In this document: positions 20,191 to 27,388 of the stretch, piece after piece
How positions within the stretch are numbered: position 1 is the stretch's first letter
Layout of the letters: the number at the start of each line of letters is the position of its first letter
Assembly: GCA_036517475.1 (NCBI GenBank)
Contig: DATDVZ010000006.1
Coordinates: forward strand, 8,226-72,225
DNA length: 64,000 nt
Origin: Minisyncoccota bacterium
GTDB taxonomy: Bacteria > Patescibacteriota > Minisyncoccia > Phycocordibacterales > Zambryskibacteraceae
Reading direction: 5' to 3'
Notes under the pieces: model-generated
The model's database searches: none
The model's input: the letters and a program-made list of their open reading frames with translations, nothing else
What the model was told of the DNA's origin: nothing
Position numbers and translations under genes: made by a program

Positions 20191-23019
20191 ATGGAAAGTG
20201 GATATTTTTATTCAAAATCAACCGGACTCTATGTAGCGCGAGGCCCACTGCGAATTGACGCCAGAGTTATTGCGGCAGCATCTCAGTGCGGAGTTAAACT
20301 TCATTGGGATGATGAGGGAAGAATTAATAATCTTGACTTCCTAGAGTCTGTACAATTACTCAAAAGTTTTGGCGCAACAATGATGAGTGTAAAAGAGTAC
20401 TGGCTTATAATGGCCGAAGTCCGAGCCGCTAATGAAGTTGAACTCTTAACTCAATTGCAATCTGACCGTTATGCCGAATGGCTTAACAGTGTTTTTGAAA
20501 ATAAAGAGTCAGTTATTGAGGATATTGAGGTAATAAATAAAGAAGGAAAAAATACTTATAGCGGAAAAAGAAAATGGGTTCAAATGCCTTACGGACATCC
20601 CGGCTGGTTCAATACAGATGAAATTGATTTAGATACCGGACTTCCGAAAAGAGTGGAGTTAAACAGGGAAAAACACGCTACAACATGGAAATATTGGTCG
20701 TTTTGCGATTACGATTATGTAGCGGCAGGCGTCAGAGGATGGGTTACTTCTGTCGGCAAACCTTCTTTGGACTTAGGCATTCCGATAGACGCCCGCCAGC
20801 CGAATTTATTAATAAGAGAATGCCGGAAAGCGCCGCTTGAAGAGAGTATTGATCCCGATATAACAAAAAAGGCAGAGATATTGATCTCGCGATTTAAAAA
20901 TATCGTAGAGACCGGAGAGTATGAATCTTTTTATAAGTCGCGTTCAGAATTTTTGCTTTTTATAAAGAATTACGGATATTTATTTTCCAGATCACAGGAA
21001 ACTAAAATATATAAAATAAGGGAGAAACTGGTTGAAATTGCCGGGCTAATCACACTCCTTGCCAGAAAAGAGGATAAAAGTGAAGAGTTTTTGGAAATAC
21101 AGGACATTGCCAGAAAAAGCTGGGGGATTGATTCAGATATTACTTATGAGGATTTTGCCACATTTGTAATGACGAGCAGGCAGAGGTTGGAGGAGGCCTT
21201 GTGCAAGACTTATCCGATTGTCTTTGTTATCGGACATAAAAATCCTGATACGGACGCGGTAGTAAGTTGTCTTTTTGAAGCATATAGGAATCATATCGCT
21301 GACGGAAAAAGAGTTGTCTTTGTGCCGGTTGTAGAGGGATATAAAATGCCATTAGAAATTTCAAGACTTCTGGGCGAGAAGTTGACCGCGAGAATAGTTT
21401 TTACCGGAGAAAAACTCTATCAAAATATTTTGCATTTAGGTCAGGCCAGATGGATAATGACTGACCATAGTTTGAATCCATTGATACAAAAATTTGTTAT
21501 TTCAATAGTTGATCACCATATCCCCTCGGCTATTGCTCTGAGACAAGAGATACCGAAAACAATTGAATTTATTGGCTCAACGTCAGCTTTGATTGTGGAG
21601 CGTATCTATGGCCTTGGCCTCACTATCCCAGGCGATTTAGCCAGAATACTCTACGGGGCAACACTAATGGACACGGAGAACCGCTCCCCATATAAAATGA
21701 CACAAAGGGACGTCTTAATCATGGATGATCTGAAAAATATCGCGGAGGTTCAAAGCGACGGAGAATTTTTCCACGATTTGATGAGCAAATTACTTAATAG
21801 TGACGACGCTGAAGATTTGTTTGCGCGTGATTACAAAGAAGATTGGCAATTTTTCGGCTTCGCCGTCGCAAAAGTCAAACACTTTTTTGACAGCAGAGGG
21901 TCTGTTCTTAAACCAGAACTTGCGGATAATCTTGTCAAACTTGCTCATAGAAATAATGCGGACAAGAACTTGCCTCTGACGCTCATTAAACTTGTTGATT
22001 ATCTTGATGATAACAGCACTATAAACCGCGAGAGAGTATATCTCATATTCAATGAAAACATTTTCAGAGAATTCAATGAAACGATGTTTACTTTACTCAA
22101 AACTATCATTCACAGCACTTTCAAAGGAAAGGAATCCATGTCAGTAACGAGGGAGTATATTGAGTTTTGGGGAGTAGGCGATCAGTTGTCACGAAAGCGC
22201 GTTGTCCCGCTTTTTGATCCTGTGGCTACGGCTTTCAACAGATTTTTCTTCTCACCCGCGTCCGGCTTATACGCAAAGAGAGAGTTTTTAAAAAATACCA
22301 AAAGAGTAAGAGATGCTGCGCTATCACTTGGGATCAAACTATCATCGGATAACCAGGAAAGAATAAACCATGTTACCTATGGAGAGGCTATTAGACTTCT
22401 TGATGAGCTCGGATTTGAAGCGATGAGTCTGCCGGAATATTGGAATGTCTACAATGACGCAAAAAGTGTTTCCGACAACCAGATGCTCGGCCAACTCAAA
22501 AGTGACGGGTTTGTTGAGTTTCTTCACACAATAATTGAGGAGAATAATTCACTGACCCACAAGCCTGAAATTATTCGCGGCAAAACAAGTTTTGTTTATG
22601 AAGACTCTGTTGTTGAAATTGAATACAATTATCAAGGGGAGAAAAGCGAGGTCAAAATCCCAGAGGGCAAACCGGGCCTTTTTTCTCCAAGCGATGTTTA
22701 CCCGGAGACAGGACTACCTGCAAATGTAAAGTCGCCAAACATTTATAATGACCCGACACTTTGGCGTTACTGGTCGCCAGACGCGTCAATAAATGTTGCA
22801 ACTCGGGGGTATATATTTCTGCTCGGTCAACCAGCACTGGATCTAAAAGTGCATTTGTCAGAGGCTTTTCAGTGTCTTGGGATAAGACCGTGCTGTAAAA
22901 AAGTTGAGTTGCCAGAAGTAGAAATATCCGCTAACAGTAGCGGGGTATCGCTAACTATTTGGGAGGAGGGAGAAAAATTTAGTATCCGTGAGGCTGATCT
23001 TTTTAAAAACCTTGGTTAA
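20191..23019 (+). CDS. Large multidomain protein (942 aa): a central DHH-family phosphoesterase domain flanked by two copies of an uncharacterised roughly 200-aa domain
   Basis: DHH motifs I (GHKNPDTDAVVS), III (IVDHH) and IV (GSTSALIV). The N-terminal region (about 10-210) and the C-terminal region (about 690-900) are clearly homologous (GHPGWFNTDEIDLDTGLPKRVE vs GKPGLFSPSDVYPETGLPANVK; TWKYWS vs LWRYWS; PSLDLGI vs PALDLKV). Confidence 0.7.
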   Translation: MESGYFYSKSTGLYVARGPLRIDARVIAAASQCGVKLHWDDEGRINNLDFLESVQLLKSFGATMMSVKEYWLIMAEVRAANEVELLTQLQSDRYAEWLNSVFENKESVIEDIEVINKEGKNTYSGKRKWVQMPYGHPGWFNTDEIDLDTGLPKRVELNREKHATTWKYWSFCDYDYVAAGVRGWVTSVGKPSLDLGIPIDARQPNLLIRECRKAPLEESIDPDITKKAEILISRFKNIVETGEYESFYKSRSEFLLFIKNYGYLFSRSQETKIYKIREKLVEIAGLITLLARKEDKSEEFLEIQDIARKSWGIDSDITYEDFATFVMTSRQRLEEALCKTYPIVFVIGHKNPDTDAVVSCLFEAYRNHIADGKRVVFVPVVEGYKMPLEISRLLGEKLTARIVFTGEKLYQNILHLGQARWIMTDHSLNPLIQKFVISIVDHHIPSAIALRQEIPKTIEFIGSTSALIVERIYGLGLTIPGDLARILYGATLMDTENRSPYKMTQRDVLIMDDLKNIAEVQSDGEFFHDLMSKLLNSDDAEDLFARDYKEDWQFFGFAVAKVKHFFDSRGSVLKPELADNLVKLAHRNNADKNLPLTLIKLVDYLDDNSTINRERVYLIFNENIFREFNETMFTLLKTIIHSTFKGKESMSVTREYIEFWGVGDQLSRKRVVPLFDPVATAFNRFFFSPASGLYAKREFLKNTKRVRDAALSLGIKLSSDNQERINHVTYGEAIRLLDELGFEAMSLPEYWNVYNDAKSVSDNQMLGQLKSDGFVEFLHTIIEENNSLTHKPEIIRGKTSFVYEDSVVEIEYNYQGEKSEVKIPEGKPGLFSPSDVYPETGLPANVKSPNIYNDPTLWRYWSPDASINVATRGYIFLLGQPALDLKVHLSEAFQCLGIRPCCKKVELPEVEISANSSGVSLTIWEEGEKFSIREADLFKNLG

Positions 23020-23489: not shown

Positions 23490-24857
23490 TTAGACCTGAT
23501 TGTTTGCATTTTTGTTTCCCCCATCAAGTGCCGCCCTTGCGACTTCTTTATACCTCTGTTCAAGCCCACCATCATCAGCAATGCTTTTTAAAGTTTGATT
23601 ACTTACATTTCGGTTGCGAGCAATGATTCTTAATAAATAACCATAACCTCTTTCTTTTGCTTGGCCTGTGCCAAAATTATGTAAAGTTTTGGGACTACAA
23701 AGAGGACTGCAAACTATTGAGCCTATTGTTGCCCAATCAGTTGAGTTTTTATATTTTTTTTCAAAATTTTCAAATAATTCTTTTTGTTTAGACTCACTTG
23801 CACCCCAAATTAAAGCGATGTTAATCAATGGGTCATCTGAAATAAGTTTTGATCTGACAGATTTAGAAGTATTACTATCATAGGCACTTATAAACTTATT
23901 TATCCAATTACCACCCTTAACTTGGTTTGTACGTTCAATAAAATCCAACCACACAAGTTCTATAATTTTTTTTATTGCATCTCTGTGCATTTCAAAATTT
24001 TCTCTTGTTACCAACGGGCTTGGGTATCCTATTTTAGTTAACCTGTGTAATGTTTTATCATCTAAAAAAGTTAACCCATTATCAGAAGTTCCGTCGTTTA
24101 TCTTTAAGACATCAGATCTAAAATTTATATAAAAATTTATCGCTTTTATAACTCTTTCTAATTCTTTTTTTGTAATTATTCCCTTACCTTCTAATTTTTT
24201 TAAACCAGTTTTAACCCGCGGTTCATATTTAATAGAATCATTATTCCTATCAAGCATTTTAATATATCTCTCATACCAAGATACAAACAACAAATCTCTG
24301 GTCCCCCCATGACAGTATTTTATATTTAGGGCATTATCCCGTACCCTTTGTCTAAAATACTGGTTCAAATAGAATCTGTTAAATATAAAATTTTTTTGTT
24401 CTCTCTCAATAGAGTTGAATTTAATTTTCTGCAACTCAAACTTTTTATGTACATTTTTATTGCCAATAATAAATCTTGTTTCTAAGATCTGATTTCCTTC
24501 AATTAGACTCTTCTTGAGGTACGTCTCTACTTCGTCAAAAGTGCCCCATGGAGGCAAATCTACTTTAGAAAAATTGAACTTATCTAACTTCCTTGTAAGT
24601 AACTCTCTAAATTTTTCTGATTCAACTGATCTTCTCTTCTCAACTAAAAAAATATCTGCATCGGATTCTCTTCCAACCAATTCGATTCTACCTGGTGAAC
24701 CATACGTATAAAGAGCGAGACCTGATGGATTTTGCTTGTTAAAAATCTCTTTTGCAGTTGTCTTGTAGGCATTTTTAACTAGGATATCAAATTTTTGAGT
24801 ATCTTTGAGTGCCCTTTCTAGACCATTAAACTTGTTGAGATTAATACTTTTTTTCAT
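23490..24857 (-). CDS. GlnD/DUF294-type nucleotidyltransferase (pol-beta superfamily) with a C-terminal helical substrate-binding-like region
   Basis: YGSPGRIELVGRESDADIFLV matches the GS-x9-13-SDxD nucleotidyltransferase motif of the GlnD/GlnE/DUF294 group. 455 aa. Its start is separated by one base from the stop of the kinase gene upstream (operon). Confidence 0.55.
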   Translation of the reverse strand: MKKSINLNKFNGLERALKDTQKFDILVKNAYKTTAKEIFNKQNPSGLALYTYGSPGRIELVGRESDADIFLVEKRRSVESEKFRELLTRKLDKFNFSKVDLPPWGTFDEVETYLKKSLIEGNQILETRFIIGNKNVHKKFELQKIKFNSIEREQKNFIFNRFYLNQYFRQRVRDNALNIKYCHGGTRDLLFVSWYERYIKMLDRNNDSIKYEPRVKTGLKKLEGKGIITKKELERVIKAINFYINFRSDVLKINDGTSDNGLTFLDDKTLHRLTKIGYPSPLVTRENFEMHRDAIKKIIELVWLDFIERTNQVKGGNWINKFISAYDSNTSKSVRSKLISDDPLINIALIWGASESKQKELFENFEKKYKNSTDWATIGSIVCSPLCSPKTLHNFGTGQAKERGYGYLLRIIARNRNVSNQTLKSIADDGGLEQRYKEVARAALDGGNKNANNQV

Positions 24858-24858
24858 T

Positions 24859-25500
24859 CTAAAGTCCTAGTTTGTTTTTGGCAATCTCAAACATCTCGTC
24901 TTCAGTACCCTCGTGGTCAATTAGATAAAGTTCGGGATGTTTTTGCGCTAACTCAATATATAATTTTCTTCGTCTCTCGATTTTCGCCAAAATTTCATCT
25001 ATCGTATAATTATTATAATATTTTTTATCATCTCTAACTTTTGCTCTACAAAGAACGGTTTCTGCCGAGCACAATAAGATTACTCCAAAATTCGGCTTTA
25101 TCGCTCCACTAGCTAAGTTAATATTAATAATATTATCAACAGAAAAATTTTTATTTGCCTGATATATTGCTGAGGTGTAAAAACATCTATCAAAAATTAA
25201 ATAATCTATCTTACCGATTAAAGGTAATAAATATTTTTCATGAACCTCACCTCTTGCTTTGGCTACATCTAATATAAATTCTTTAGAAAATTGTTCGTTA
25301 CGCCCCTCATTACTCCATTTGGAAATTATTTGCTTAAAAGACTCATAAGCTTTCTCATAAACAATCAGGTTAGTTTTATTTTTTTTATTAAGGAATTCTG
25401 AAATTTTGGCGACCAGAGTAGTTTTACCAGTGCTAGTCATTCCCTCAATACATATGACTTTTGTCATCATAATTGGACAGATACTATCAAAAAAGTTCAA
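24859..25500 (-). CDS. P-loop NMP kinase, thymidylate-kinase-like
   Basis: Walker A ICIEGMTSTGKTT and DRCFYTSAIYQ (the TMK DRY..S.AYQ motif). Co-operonic with the nucleotidyltransferase. Confidence 0.55.
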   Translation of the reverse strand: MNFFDSICPIMMTKVICIEGMTSTGKTTLVAKISEFLNKKNKTNLIVYEKAYESFKQIISKWSNEGRNEQFSKEFILDVAKARGEVHEKYLLPLIGKIDYLIFDRCFYTSAIYQANKNFSVDNIININLASGAIKPNFGVILLCSAETVLCRAKVRDDKKYYNNYTIDEILAKIERRRKLYIELAQKHPELYLIDHEGTEDEMFEIAKNKLGL

Positions 25501-25537
25501 ATAGAAAAGAGAGCGCTTATGCTATATTTTAAAGACT

Positions 25538-26125
25538 GTGATTAAAAAAATTGAAAATGTTGCTAAAAAATATTACAGCAAACTACCCTATCATAACTGG
25601 AATCATGCAAAAAAGGTCAGGAGTAATGCATTGGAATTAGTAGAAAGATGCAGAAAGTATAAAGTTCCTGTCGATTCTGAAGTCGTTGAAATAGCAGCTT
25701 TATTTCATGACGCGGGTTATGCTGACGTAAAAGAAAACAAGGAAGAACACAGTGCAAAAATCGCTAGAAAAGCGCTCAAAAAATATAAATATCCGGATTC
25801 AAAAATCAAAGCTGTAATAAATACAATTTTAGCAACCAAAAAAAACGGCCAATTAAAAACAAATGAACAAAAAATAATGCGCGCAGCAGATTTAAGATCT
25901 TTTACTTCAAGTTTTAAGGAATTTAAAAAAGCCAGTGATAAGATCCGTAGAGAATATAAAATACTTTATGGTAATAGTGATTTTCCGCTAAAGGGCTGGA
26001 CTGAGCTTGTCGACGCATATCTAAAACCGAAAATTAAACTCACTCCGGAATATTCTTCTGATAAATTTCACACCAAAGCCAAAAATAATATTAAAAGAAT
26101 TTTAAGAGAATATAAAAAGACCTGA
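25538..26125 (+). CDS. HD-domain metal-dependent phosphohydrolase
   Basis: HNWNH...LFHDAGY (H...HD motif). 195 aa. Divergent from the kinase gene with a 37-bp gap. Confidence 0.7.
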   Translation: MIKKIENVAKKYYSKLPYHNWNHAKKVRSNALELVERCRKYKVPVDSEVVEIAALFHDAGYADVKENKEEHSAKIARKALKKYKYPDSKIKAVINTILATKKNGQLKTNEQKIMRAADLRSFTSSFKEFKKASDKIRREYKILYGNSDFPLKGWTELVDAYLKPKIKLTPEYSSDKFHTKAKNNIKRILREYKKT

Positions 26126-26128
26126 TAA

Positions 26129-26722
26129 TTATTCAAGTTCAGAATATTTCACAAGTCTATTTCTTCCGGTTTCTTTTGCTCTGTACAATGCCTTATCAGC
26201 GCAGGCAACTATACCCTGGCAATTCATACCCGAAGTTGCTGTGGCTACCCCGATACTGGCCGTTACAGCTAAGTCAGACGAACTAAACTTTAAATTTTGA
26301 ATCTCCTGAAGCAATTCTTGCCCCTTCTTTGCTGCATCATCTTCATTGGCACCCAAGAGAGAAACTACAATCTCTTCTCCTCCCCATCTAGCTGCTGTGT
26401 CTCCACCTCGTAGGGAAATCATTATTGTCTCTGATACTTTTTTTAAAATCTCGTCTCCAACAGCATGTCCGAATTGATCATTAATTTTTTTAAAATGATC
26501 TAAATCAAAAAATAAAATGCTTAAATTTCTGAAACCAAACCACTCTTTTCGATTACTTTTATCTAAATTTGCAATAGCATCTAAATAAGTATCTATCTCC
26601 TCTTCAAAAAATTTTCGAGTTTTTAGTCCGGTGAGAGAATCGTGAATTAAATCTTTTTCCAGATTTTTAACTTGCTTTTCAAGTTCAGTAATTTTATTTT
26701 TTAATTCATCAACGTCAGACAT
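26129..26722 (-). CDS. GGDEF-domain diguanylate cyclase with an N-terminal coiled coil
   Basis: DSLTGLKTR, DLDHFKKINDQFGH, RWGGEEI (GGEEF active-site variant) and the KALYRAK motifs. 197 aa. Confidence 0.85.
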   Translation of the reverse strand: MSDVDELKNKITELEKQVKNLEKDLIHDSLTGLKTRKFFEEEIDTYLDAIANLDKSNRKEWFGFRNLSILFFDLDHFKKINDQFGHAVGDEILKKVSETIMISLRGGDTAARWGGEEIVVSLLGANEDDAAKKGQELLQEIQNLKFSSSDLAVTASIGVATATSGMNCQGIVACADKALYRAKETGRNRLVKYSELE

Positions 26723-26769
26723 CTCTTTTTATAAATTATACCATCATTTAATATGAATCTCTTTCTTAT

Positions 26770-26791
26770 CATCTACGCCATGGCGTAGATG
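26770..26791. promoter_or_regulatory. 22-bp perfect palindrome catctacgccatggcgtagatg (downstream copy), 3' of the Cas2-like gene
   Basis: Perfect inverted repeat with a central CCATGG. Identical to the copy at 27219-27240. Lies 25 nt after the stop of the 26817-27221 gene and about 48 nt before the GGDEF start. Confidence 0.6.
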
Positions 26792-26816
26792 AAGAACCAT
26801 ATATAATCAAACATGA

Positions 26817-27221
26817 TTACTTTATTTTCAATTTATAAGTCTTGAATGATTTTCCTAAACCAATTCTTTTCACATAATCAGTAAAATCTAGCGGCAAAGA
26901 TGGACCAACCCAGACACTCTTCTGAATCATGACAAAATCAAAGCTCTTAAGTTGACGGCGAAACCAATCTCGCTCTTTTTTCATTGTGTGAGGAACATCG
27001 TAAATAACTAATAAGTTTTTTGTAGAACCCTTCACATTATAATTTGTAAAAGAACGCAGATAATGCCGTCTTGAAATACTCTCGAGAACTCGCTTCCTTT
27101 TTTTAACCAAACTGAAAATATTTGGATCAGGTAGGTTAAAATTACCAAGGGGCACACCTTTGTAAGATTTTTTCCCTTTTTTCATAAATTTATTCTGTCC
27201 ATAAAATAATACTACTACCAT
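26817..27221 (-). CDS. Solo Cas2/VapD-fold endoribonuclease-like protein with a roughly 60-aa basic N-terminal extension
   Basis: LLVIYDVPHTMKKERDWFRRQLKSFDFVMIQKSVWV aligns well with the type II Cas2 core (e.g. [37 protein letters not shown]). No cas1 and no CRISPR array in the window. The start codon is the terminal triplet of the upstream palindrome. Confidence 0.45.
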   Translation of the reverse strand: MVVVLFYGQNKFMKKGKKSYKGVPLGNFNLPDPNIFSLVKKRKRVLESISRRHYLRSFTNYNVKGSTKNLLVIYDVPHTMKKERDWFRRQLKSFDFVMIQKSVWVGPSLPLDFTDYVKRIGLGKSFKTYKLKIK

Positions 27222-27240
27222 CTACGCCATGGCGTAGATG
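27219..27240. promoter_or_regulatory. 22-bp perfect palindrome catctacgccatggcgtagatg (upstream copy), overlapping the start codon of the Cas2-like gene
   Basis: Identical to 26770-26791. On the minus strand it is preceded by a TATAAT-like box about 7 nt upstream. Confidence 0.6.
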
Positions 27241-27255
27241 GTAAAATTATATTAT

Positions 27256-27295
27256 ATCAGTTATCAAGTTGATCAGTTATATGCAGATCAGTTAT
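27256..27295. promoter_or_regulatory. Three direct iterons ATCAGTTAT (spacing 16 and 15 bp) in the promoter region of the Cas2-like gene
   Basis: atcagttat at 27256, 27272 and 27287, immediately upstream (minus-strand sense) of the -10-like box and palindrome. Confidence 0.5.
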
Positions 27296-27388
27296 CAGCA
27301 GGTGGATTGATAAAATTTCTTATTGGTATCTATCTCAAATTAAGGCTGAAACCTTTCCTCAACCCCACACCACAAAGCTTCGCTTTGG

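Follow-up and report, generated by a model that had tools for sequence, protein, structure and literature searches.

What does a nucleotidyltransferase (NTase) do when its gene stands alone, one base downstream of a kinase gene, in a bacterium of the candidate phyla radiation (CPR)? The question is raised by a pair of genes in a 64-kb window, by which we mean the whole stretch of DNA analyzed (64,000 nucleotides of contig DATDVZ010000006.1, assembly GCA_036517475.1); it is labeled Candidatus Paceibacterota (Patescibacteria/CPR) and has GroEL, GGDEF and LemA among its bacterial genes. The open reading frame (ORF) of the NTase, which is of the GlnE/GlnD type (Pol-beta superfamily), occupies 23490-24857 on the minus strand (455 aa) and follows, on the same strand, the gene for a thymidylate-kinase-fold P-loop kinase (24859-25470; 203 aa from the ATG at 25470). 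A preliminary description of this DNA, whose ORF coordinates all agree with the ORF list, had read the two genes together with nearby HD, GGDEF and DHH genes as a compact second-messenger neighborhood. Comparison with related loci led us to a different answer: the pair is a bacterial copy of a rare three-part cassette, made up of the NTase, a kinase with the dTMP-kinase fold and a phosphoesterase, which occurs almost only in DPANN archaea.

A conserved three-part cassette

Contig look-ups together with genome and metagenome scans provided 119 related loci, or 120 with the window, which were grouped into 76 non-redundant clusters at 90% NTase identity. ORFs of these loci were searched with hidden Markov models built from the first loci, and all ORFs were clustered. 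A thymidylate-kinase-like (TMK-like) kinase adjoins the NTase in 58 of the 76 clusters, with a His_Phos_1 phosphatase adjacent in 31 and an Exo_endo_phos (EEP) phosphoesterase in 20. Many of the remaining contigs, on which the kinase or phosphoesterase is not adjacent, end early at a contig edge; among the 58 loci flanked by 900 bp or more on each side, the kinase was found in 50 and His_Phos_1 or EEP in 53. The genes occur in at least five orders (KIN>NT>HP, HP>KIN>NT, <KIN|NT>EEP>, NT>HP>KIN and NT>KIN><EEP, where KIN, NT and HP stand for kinase, NTase and His_Phos_1), and gene order follows the NTase tree. The adjacency of NTase and kinase is far beyond chance and has been kept through rearrangement, a classic sign of functional linkage, which marks the pair as a conserved module. 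Its hosts are almost only Woese-, Pace- and Nanoarchaeota (DPANN). The pairing noticed in the preliminary description is thus conserved across most clusters and several gene orders, and its remark that this was not a described module also stands, as no description of an NTase-kinase-phosphoesterase cassette was found in the searchable literature.

The NTase represents a distinct family

The NTase, whose database entry is annotated as a hypothetical protein, matched Pfam GlnD_UR_UTase (PF08335) over residues 176-273 with E=4e-7 and 30.5 bits (gathering score 21); its Pfam matches to NTP_transf_2 and DUF294 were weak, the latter (E=0.041) lying under the gathering score. The protein consists of a catalytic core (residues ~40-135), the PF08335 helical domain (~150-275) and a family-specific helical-repeat C-domain (~280-455). 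Thirty-seven homologues align with one another from end to end and share 36 invariant columns, including the Pol-beta catalytic set (Y52-G53-S54, D66-x-D68 and D100), E120-G-N-Q123, the GlnE/GlnD-type motif N178-x-K180-Y-x-x-G184-G185-x-R187 within the PF08335 domain, and a C-terminal block composed of Y407, L409, R410, R435 and Y436.

Structural comparison gave the same placement. The AlphaFold (AF2) model has a pLDDT of 93.6, and its best PDB folds in Foldseek were GlnE 1v4a (E=2.9e-5, TM 0.48-0.50) and DrrA 6yx5_B, with GlnE 3k7d (E=1e-3) and then MntA as further matches. Entries 1v4a and 3k7d are the two NTase domains of GlnE (AR and AT), and the DrrA match is to its AMPylation domain. The C-terminal third of the model gave weak matches to ARM/HEAT-like folds. 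When PDB chains were searched by sequence, the single sequence reached E=0.82, and a profile retrieved only a minimal NTase at E=0.0012 along with weak alphaRep/HEAT hints.

Catalytic motif, helical domain and fold place the protein in the GlnE/GlnD-type superfamily (Pol-beta fold plus PF08335), since, like GlnE, GlnD and DrrA, it has the Pol-beta G-S...D-x-D...D core followed by PF08335 with a K-x-x-G-G-x-R-D-type motif. It differs from each of the characterized architectures, and in NCBIfam it scored 20-36 bits where the cut-offs are 519 to 1010. Whereas GlnD combines NTase, HD and ACT domains in about 850-900 aa, no HD or ACT domain was detected in the 455 aa of the window protein, which reached at best 35.8 bits against the GlnD equivalog cut-off of 959. 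GlnE is a tandem AR/AT protein of about 950 aa, but the window protein has a single NTase unit and scored 11.5 bits against NF008292 (cut-off 487). Furthermore, the partners of the cassette NTase are a kinase and a phosphoesterase rather than PII or glutamine synthetase, its hosts are DPANN archaea and CPR bacteria, and its helical-repeat C-domain has invariant residues of its own. The CBS/cNMP-linked proteins of Pfam DUF294 belong to the same superfamily, but the window NTase lacks CBS and cNMP-binding domains; DUF294 matches are clearer in distant members of the NTase family than in the window protein. No function for DUF294 was found in the searchable literature, where papers that mention DUF294 concern unrelated copper operons, so that this comparison supplies no mechanism. 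The NTase is therefore a distinct full-length family of the GlnE/GlnD/DUF294 superfamily with its own conserved C-domain. It is a stand-alone enzyme, as had been proposed, and the possibility that it is an ordinary GlnE or GlnD fragment is ruled out by homologues that align over the whole length and by the invariant residues near the C-terminus.

The kinase and its junction with the NTase

The kinase matched Pfam Thymidylate_kin (PF02223) with E=2e-13. Its invariant residues comprise the P-loop (G10, G15, K16), D94-R95, T99, R146 and Y171, with R142 and Y98 nearly invariant in the family. The AF2 model (pLDDT 81.5) retrieved, among the 50 Foldseek matches listed, thymidylate kinases only, apart from an adenylate kinase at rank 14; the best matches, with TM of 0.75-0.8, include the Aquifex, Thermotoga, Sulfolobus and E. 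coli dTMP kinases. By P-loop, D-R-(Y/F) motif, LID arginines and overall fold the protein is of the dTMP-kinase (Tmk) type. It is nevertheless only 17-23% identical to the solved enzymes and scored 73.7 bits against the dTMP-kinase equivalog TIGR00041, under the cut-off of 83.25; among orthologous kinases, that of locus L024 passes with 89.4 bits and that of L037 falls short with 62.0. In addition, the REPGGT region of dTMP kinase is replaced in this family by an E-K-x-Y-E-P-F motif, and the cassette kinase is inherited together with the NTase, some cassettes having two copies of it. The window kinase is an orthologue of the NTase-linked DPANN kinases, having 44-49% identity to DPANN kinases only, and no second TMK-like ORF was found within the 64-kb window.

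The longest frame of the kinase ORF (24859-25500, minus strand, 213 aa) opens at a TTG at 25500. The ATG at 25470 is the more likely start, judging from a 99%-identical database protein of 203 aa and from homologues that all begin at the equivalent Met. With this start, the gap to the divergent HD gene, which had been given as 37 bp, becomes 67 bp. A promoter scan of the divergent region, which is uninformative in DNA so rich in AT, returned 29 sites against 17.8 expected, with none in the gap itself (25471-25537). At the other end of the kinase gene, the sequence was read directly (24855-24872, minus strand): the junction runs ...AGGACTTTAG-A-ATG, so that a single base separates the kinase stop codon from the NTase start codon (TAG-A-ATG), and a Shine-Dalgarno-like AGGA lies 8 nt upstream, inside the 3' end of the kinase gene. 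The close junction reported earlier is thus confirmed, and the arrangement makes the translational coupling claimed with it plausible.

Exchangeable components and recurring extra genes

The third slot of the cassette is the most variable. Depending on the locus it is filled by His_Phos_1, EEP or HAD, and in distant bacterial homologues by a metallo-beta-lactamase-fold hydrolase (MBL), EEP or 2H; unrelated folds have taken this place on several occasions. The nearest relative of the His_Phos_1 partner, below threshold, is the alpha-ribazole-5'-phosphate phosphatase CobC. The kinase can also be exchanged. One NTase clade (three clusters) has no TMK-like kinase, and an EEP-PfkB operon converges on the NTase; another (three clusters) carries an APH-family kinase together with a second His_Phos_1 that is fused to a P-loop kinase domain of another kind.

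Among 227 neighbor ORFs, 10 encode NUDIX proteins and about 10 class-I S-adenosylmethionine (SAM) methyltransferases, followed by RtcB (5) and small MNT-type NTases (4). RtcB (family f9) lies within ~3 kb of the cassette in 5 of the 76 clusters, in at least three NTase clades and with differing gene orders (L033 3102-4256, L045 2-1090, L060 3466-4590, L080 6425-7609, L087 5960-6442 and L100 2102-3256), and is the only housekeeping-type family to recur this often near the cassette; archease was seen near the cassette in one case and seryl-tRNA synthetase in two. Family f13, a Cys-rich membrane protein with a single pass, recurs near RtcB and was judged incidental.

Several loci have further peculiarities. 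In one DPANN subclade a methyltransferase-NUDIX pair is inserted between kinase and NTase (L003 3718-6004, L010 3705-5978 and L012 3700-5986), as is a second, more divergent kinase copy; the two kinase copies of L003 are nearly identical over ~40 residues at the C-terminus, suggestive of recent recombination or of a partial duplication. A myo-inositol-1-phosphate synthase gene abuts the NTase upstream in two clusters of a divergent NTase clade, both on short contigs that lack the downstream context (L116 422-1513 and L098 3-443). Toxin-antitoxin genes (HTH-MNT-type NTase, ParE/YoeB-like, AbiEii and MazE) often lie a few kb or less from the cassette on DPANN contigs, for example at L060 2441-3372, L024 2317-2927 and several other loci, and may indicate variable or mobile regions. 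At L124 (GCA_964655935.1, contig CAZZNY010000003.1, 3464-7094), a small KNTase-like NTase, the large NTase and an EEP lie beside an nSTAND-type NTPase; these genes contain in-frame stops under translation table 11 and the recorded product was not reproduced, consistent with an alternative genetic code.

Rarity and origin of the window copy

The NTase family is rare and almost entirely DPANN-archaeal. A sequence search with the NTase returned 73 clusters that, near-identical copies aside, were at most 56% identical to it; where a source was named, it was Nano- or Woesearchaeota. The corresponding kinase search returned 21 clusters at 40-52% identity, bar one 99%-identical copy, with a metagenome-assembled genome of Nanoarchaeota as the only named organism. 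Among 1.84 billion representatives, a profile search retrieved 331 proteins with E<=1e-3 and, at the stricter limit of E<=1e-30, 78, with many fragments among them. No viral copy of the NTase was found in IMG/VR.

Three giant proteins in this set embed a full-length remote copy of the NTase: P0281 (2924 aa; B12/radical-SAM, APH kinase and NTase), P0290 (3487 aa; methyltransferase, NTase, MGS-type glycosyltransferase (GT) and HAD) and P0302 (4223 aa, from Omnitrophota; HD, ARMT1 phosphatase, B12/radical SAM, NTase, Bac_transf and GT4). Large stretches of these proteins are without annotation. Their fusions repeat the partnership with kinase, phosphatase and methyltransferase and add glycosyltransferases to it. 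The GlnD-like proteins P0300 and P0305 match the family through their N-terminal NTase alone.

Identity to archaeal proteins is 52-55% for the window NTase and 44-49% for the kinase. Just two further NTase copies were found in Patescibacteria, at L037 and L039; they are 29% identical to that of the window and have a different gene order. In a neighbor-joining tree the window copy nests inside the archaeal KIN>NT>HP clade, and the archaeal loci contain genes typical of archaea (aIF2-gamma, S6e, proteasome alpha, exosome subunits and diphthamide synthase). The 64-kb window contains no cassette-type His_Phos_1, EEP, HAD, NUDIX, methyltransferase, PfkB, APH or RtcB gene. From this nesting within an archaeal clade, and from the lack of a cassette-type phosphatase anywhere in the 64 kb, the most likely history is that the kinase-NTase pair moved from archaea into a Paceibacterota bacterium, leaving the phosphoesterase behind. 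The low G+C fraction of the pair (0.316, compared with 0.389 in the window as a whole) also fits this history, but resident neighbors are similarly low (HD 0.318, DUF2784 0.297), so that composition alone does not mark an insert.

Possible function

Our leading, though still tentative, reading is that the cassette works on a small molecule of nucleotide type in a pathway of kinase, NTase and phosphatase, and not on a protein or a cyclic-dinucleotide signal. The kinase would phosphorylate a precursor resembling a nucleoside monophosphate (NMP), or else a sugar or nucleoside precursor; the NTase would join an NMP, taken from an NTP, to the phosphorylated precursor and so yield a metabolite linked to a nucleoside diphosphate (NDP) or NMP; the phosphoesterase would take off a remaining phosphate or recycle an intermediate; and the optional NUDIX protein may hydrolyze the NDP-linked product. 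Several features suggest this reading. The alternative kinases of the cassette come from the TMK, PfkB and APH families, all of which are overwhelmingly small-molecule kinases, and the TMK-like kinase keeps the NMP site of dTMP kinase (fold, P-loop, DR motif and LID arginines). The His_Phos_1 partner, with CobC as its nearest relative, resembles a nucleotide phosphatase; NUDIX enzymes, which recur as partners, hydrolyze NDP-X compounds; and remote NTase homologues are fused to glycosyltransferases.

Combinations of kinase, NTase and phosphatase are known from salvage pathways that lead to nucleotide sugars, such as AmgK-MurU-MupP (UDP-MurNAc) and HldE-GmhB (ADP-heptose). The cassette shares their three-enzyme logic, and some of its variants share components, with APH resembling AmgK, PfkB resembling the kinase domain of HldE and the HAD phosphatase variant resembling GmhB and MupP. 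Those pathways, however, use Rossmann-like sugar-1-phosphate NTases, whereas the cassette has a Pol-beta/GlnE-type NTase and its commonest kinase is of the dTMP-kinase type. The components come from known superfamilies and the logic resembles that of known pathways, but the cassette itself is apparently undescribed.

A number of observations weigh against a small-molecule substrate. The solved relatives of the NTase (GlnE, DrrA and MntA) all nucleotidylate proteins, and we know of no GlnE/GlnD-clade enzyme that makes an NDP-linked metabolite. The core cassette lacks a transferase that would use an activated product, and the glycosyltransferase fusions occur only in remote homologues (E 1e-12 to 1e-15), with P0302 from Omnitrophota as the only one of named source. 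The three kinases are not obviously isofunctional, as TMK-type enzymes phosphorylate a phosphate (NMP to NDP) and PfkB and APH enzymes phosphorylate hydroxyls. Finally, the recurrence of RtcB within 3 kb in five clusters and at least three NTase clades points to RNA ends.

Alternative functions

This last point leads to an alternative that we regard as unlikely, namely the healing and tailing of RNA ends beside RtcB. Here damaged RNA or tRNA would lose its 3'-phosphate or 2',3'-cyclic phosphate to the phosphoesterase and gain one or more nucleotides at the freed 3'-OH from the NTase, the kinase would phosphorylate the 5' end, and the methyltransferase and NUDIX proteins would protect or trim the product. 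RNA-repair cassettes (Pnkp-Hen1, HD-Pnk and RtcB-RlaP) likewise combine NTase, kinase and phosphatase, sometimes with a methyltransferase, and RNA repair reportedly follows a 'syntax' of NTase, kinase and phosphatase, with or without a methylase, in which domains are displaced and laterally transferred. The cassette described here shows similar displacement and lateral transfer, and RtcB occasionally lies near it. Every phosphoesterase fold seen except His_Phos_1, namely HAD, EEP, HD, MBL and 2H, has members that act on RNA ends bearing a 3'-phosphate or a 2',3'-cyclic phosphate, among them T4 Pnkp, ANGEL2, HD-Pnk and LigT. The changing gene orders around RtcB and the presence of archease and seryl-tRNA synthetase fit this alternative as well, and RlaP offers a precedent, being a Pol-beta NTase of RtcB operons that adds one or two NMP to the 3'-OH of damaged RNA (PMC12776372).

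Most of the components, however, differ from those of RNA-repair cassettes. The Pfam scan gave no PF10127 (RlaP) match for the NTase, whose fold also had no significant match to CCA-adding enzymes, poly(A) polymerases or terminal uridylyltransferases (TUTases) (E>1). The kinase is not of the Pnk/Clp1 type and, unlike a polynucleotide kinase, retains the NMP-site motifs and fold of dTMP kinase, and no action on RNA ends is known for PfkB or APH kinases. A ligase is absent from the core, remote NTase homologues being fused to glycosyltransferases and not to ligases, and the methyltransferase is not recognizably Hen1, with no Hen1 match among its best 25 NCBIfam matches. The isoelectric points of the NTase family, from 5.4 to 10, have a median equal to background, and this property did not separate RNA-binding from metabolite enzymes. 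Moreover, RtcB is universal in archaea, and 5 of 76 clusters represent no more than a modest enrichment. A common, hitherto unrecognized RNA-end modification system of DPANN archaea and CPR bacteria, the two large groups of ultra-small symbionts, in which the phosphoesterase unblocks the end, the NTase adds nucleotides and the kinase phosphorylates the 5'-terminal nucleotide, is something we would entertain without expecting it. In its boldest version the kinase would turn a 5'-monophosphate into a 5'-diphosphate and the NTase would add a cap-like NMP, which the methyltransferase might mark and the NUDIX protein might remove.

Less likely still, in our estimation, is a switch based on protein nucleotidylylation, as in GlnE, GlnD and DrrA. 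Here the NTase would AMPylate or UMPylate a hydroxyl, such as that of a tyrosine, on a partner protein (the co-translated kinase is one candidate), with the helical-repeat C-domain binding the protein and the phosphoesterase reversing the mark or a linked phosphorylation. All of the closest solved folds (GlnE AR and AT, DrrA and MntA) do indeed belong to protein-modifying NTases, PF08335 is the signature helical domain of GlnD and GlnE, and the ARM/HEAT-like repeats weakly matched by the C-domain are typical protein-binding scaffolds. The tight stop-start junction suggests equimolar NTase and kinase, and the kinase family offers an invariant tyrosine (Y171) and a nearly invariant one (Y98). 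Yet enzymes of the His_Phos_1 and HAD types cleave phosphomonoesters and are ill suited to taking off an NMP diester, and the replacement of the kinase by PfkB, of a carbohydrate/nucleoside kinase family, is hard to square with the kinase being the target. In addition, the frequent NUDIX partners and the fusions with glycosyltransferases speak for small molecules, and neither PII nor glutamine synthetase recurs among the gene families listed around the cassette.

We consider it quite improbable that the pair forms a nucleotide-signal or defense module, in which the NTase would make a linear or dinucleoside-polyphosphate messenger from kinase-made NDP, the phosphoesterase or NUDIX protein would degrade it, and cross-talk with the GGDEF and HD genes of the window might occur. 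The rare and patchy distribution with cross-domain transfer is in keeping with such a module, as are distant homologues that lie with a second small NTase and a hydrolase of the EEP or MBL type (the latter weakly Apyc1-like), NUDIX partners that could hydrolyze dinucleoside polyphosphates, and a weak match of the kinase to VakA in PADLOC-DB v2 (E=2.3e-6). In that database, however, the NTase had only a spurious REase_II match (E=0.0028), the kinase's other matches were generic P-loop ones, and the HD protein had none. Together with the absence of viral copies and of any effector or receptor gene recurring with the cassette, this leaves the earlier suggestion of an anti-phage module without footing; the 36 invariant NTase columns are also unlike fast-evolving conflict systems, and the GGDEF, HD and DHH genes are not conserved partners.

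Last, an ordinary housekeeping dTMP kinase co-transcribed by chance with an unrelated NTase, with no functional cassette, agrees with the fold and motifs of the kinase, with the L024 orthologue passing the NCBIfam cut-off and with the JGI annotation of two kinase-search members as thymidylate kinase, but is highly improbable given that the adjacency has outlasted at least five rearrangements and a transfer between domains of life, that the 21 kinase-search clusters are all close to NTase-linked kinases (contexts being confirmed for few), that some loci carry two kinase copies, that another kinase fills in where the TMK-like one is absent, and that the window kinase falls under the dTMP-kinase cut-off and lacks a REPGGT-type motif.

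Significance

DPANN archaea and CPR bacteria have tiny genomes and very incomplete nucleotide and cofactor metabolism, which makes it unlikely that a conserved, mobile, nucleotide-handling cassette is idle in them. If the small-molecule reading is true, the cassette would provide a new route to a nucleotide-linked metabolite and the first non-protein substrate for the GlnE/GlnD branch, and a GlnE-type NTase in a nucleotide-sugar-like route would be new chemistry for the GlnE clade. Were RNA ends the substrate, the cassette would instead amount to a new RNA-repair or RNA-marking system, with a new partner for RtcB and the first nucleic-acid substrate for the GlnE/GlnD clade. In addition, a family of hypothetical proteins gains a defined set of partners, and its function can be tested with three small soluble proteins. 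The locus also documents what is most likely a clean archaea-to-bacteria transfer between episymbiont lineages.

Neighboring genes in the window

The divergent neighbor of the kinase (25538-26125, plus strand, 195 aa) is an HD phosphohydrolase, as had been called (HD domain E=8.6e-9). Its homologues in other Patescibacteria, at 55-60% identity, lie in the contexts of ribonucleotide reductase, a leucine-rich repeat protein and a CYTH protein; no kinase, NTase or GGDEF gene was found beside the HD homologues examined, and no homologue of the window HD was found in any other NTase locus. Given these unrelated contexts the HD gene was rejected as a member of the module, and, judging by its sequence relatives, it is resident in Patescibacteria, without a conserved association with the pair. 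Likewise, no GGDEF or DHH gene recurs with the pair in the 120 related loci, which show no linkage to a cyclic-di-GMP or other cyclic-dinucleotide module. Since the HD gene is resident elsewhere in unrelated contexts and the GGDEF and DHH genes do not recur, the apparent second-messenger neighborhood is not a unit but a chance juxtaposition around a horizontally acquired pair. The idea that a separate hydrolase belongs with the NTase was right in kind, as a phosphoesterase nearly always accompanies it in other loci, and wrong for this HD gene. One might conjecture that the HD protein substitutes for the lost phosphoesterase; HD domains occur in the P0302 fusion.

The GGDEF gene (26129-26722, minus strand, 197 aa) converges on the HD gene, and the 3-bp gap between their ends is correct as described. 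The protein is small and stand-alone, with an N-terminal coiled coil, and has a strong GGDEF-domain match (E=1.5e-38), in line with the assigned diguanylate-cyclase-type domain. Its motif, reported as GGEEF, reads GGEEI in the translation, and because this replaces GG(D/E)EF its cyclase activity is uncertain.

The DHH gene (20191-23019, plus strand) encodes a DHH protein of 942 aa, as stated in the preliminary description, but its proposed kinship with cyclic-dinucleotide and nanoRNA phosphodiesterases was not borne out, as no NCBIfam model for either was matched. The nearest NCBIfam models were family-II Mn-dependent inorganic pyrophosphatases, with E about 1e-15 and scores far under the cut-offs. 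The pyrophosphatase-like core (~residues 340-610) is placed between two ~210-aa domain copies of unknown function, N- and C-terminal, which are 32% identical to each other (E=4e-37).

Farther along, at 26817-27221 on the minus strand, lies a gene for a stand-alone Cas2-like/PaaX_M-like protein of 134 aa, a 122-aa version of which is named Cas2 by NCBI. A CRISPR context for this gene was considered and set aside, as there is no array anywhere in the 64 kb. A perfect palindrome, TACCATCTACGCCATGGCGTAGATGGTA (27215-27244), with a stem of 12-13 bp, overlaps its start codon and reaches just upstream of it.

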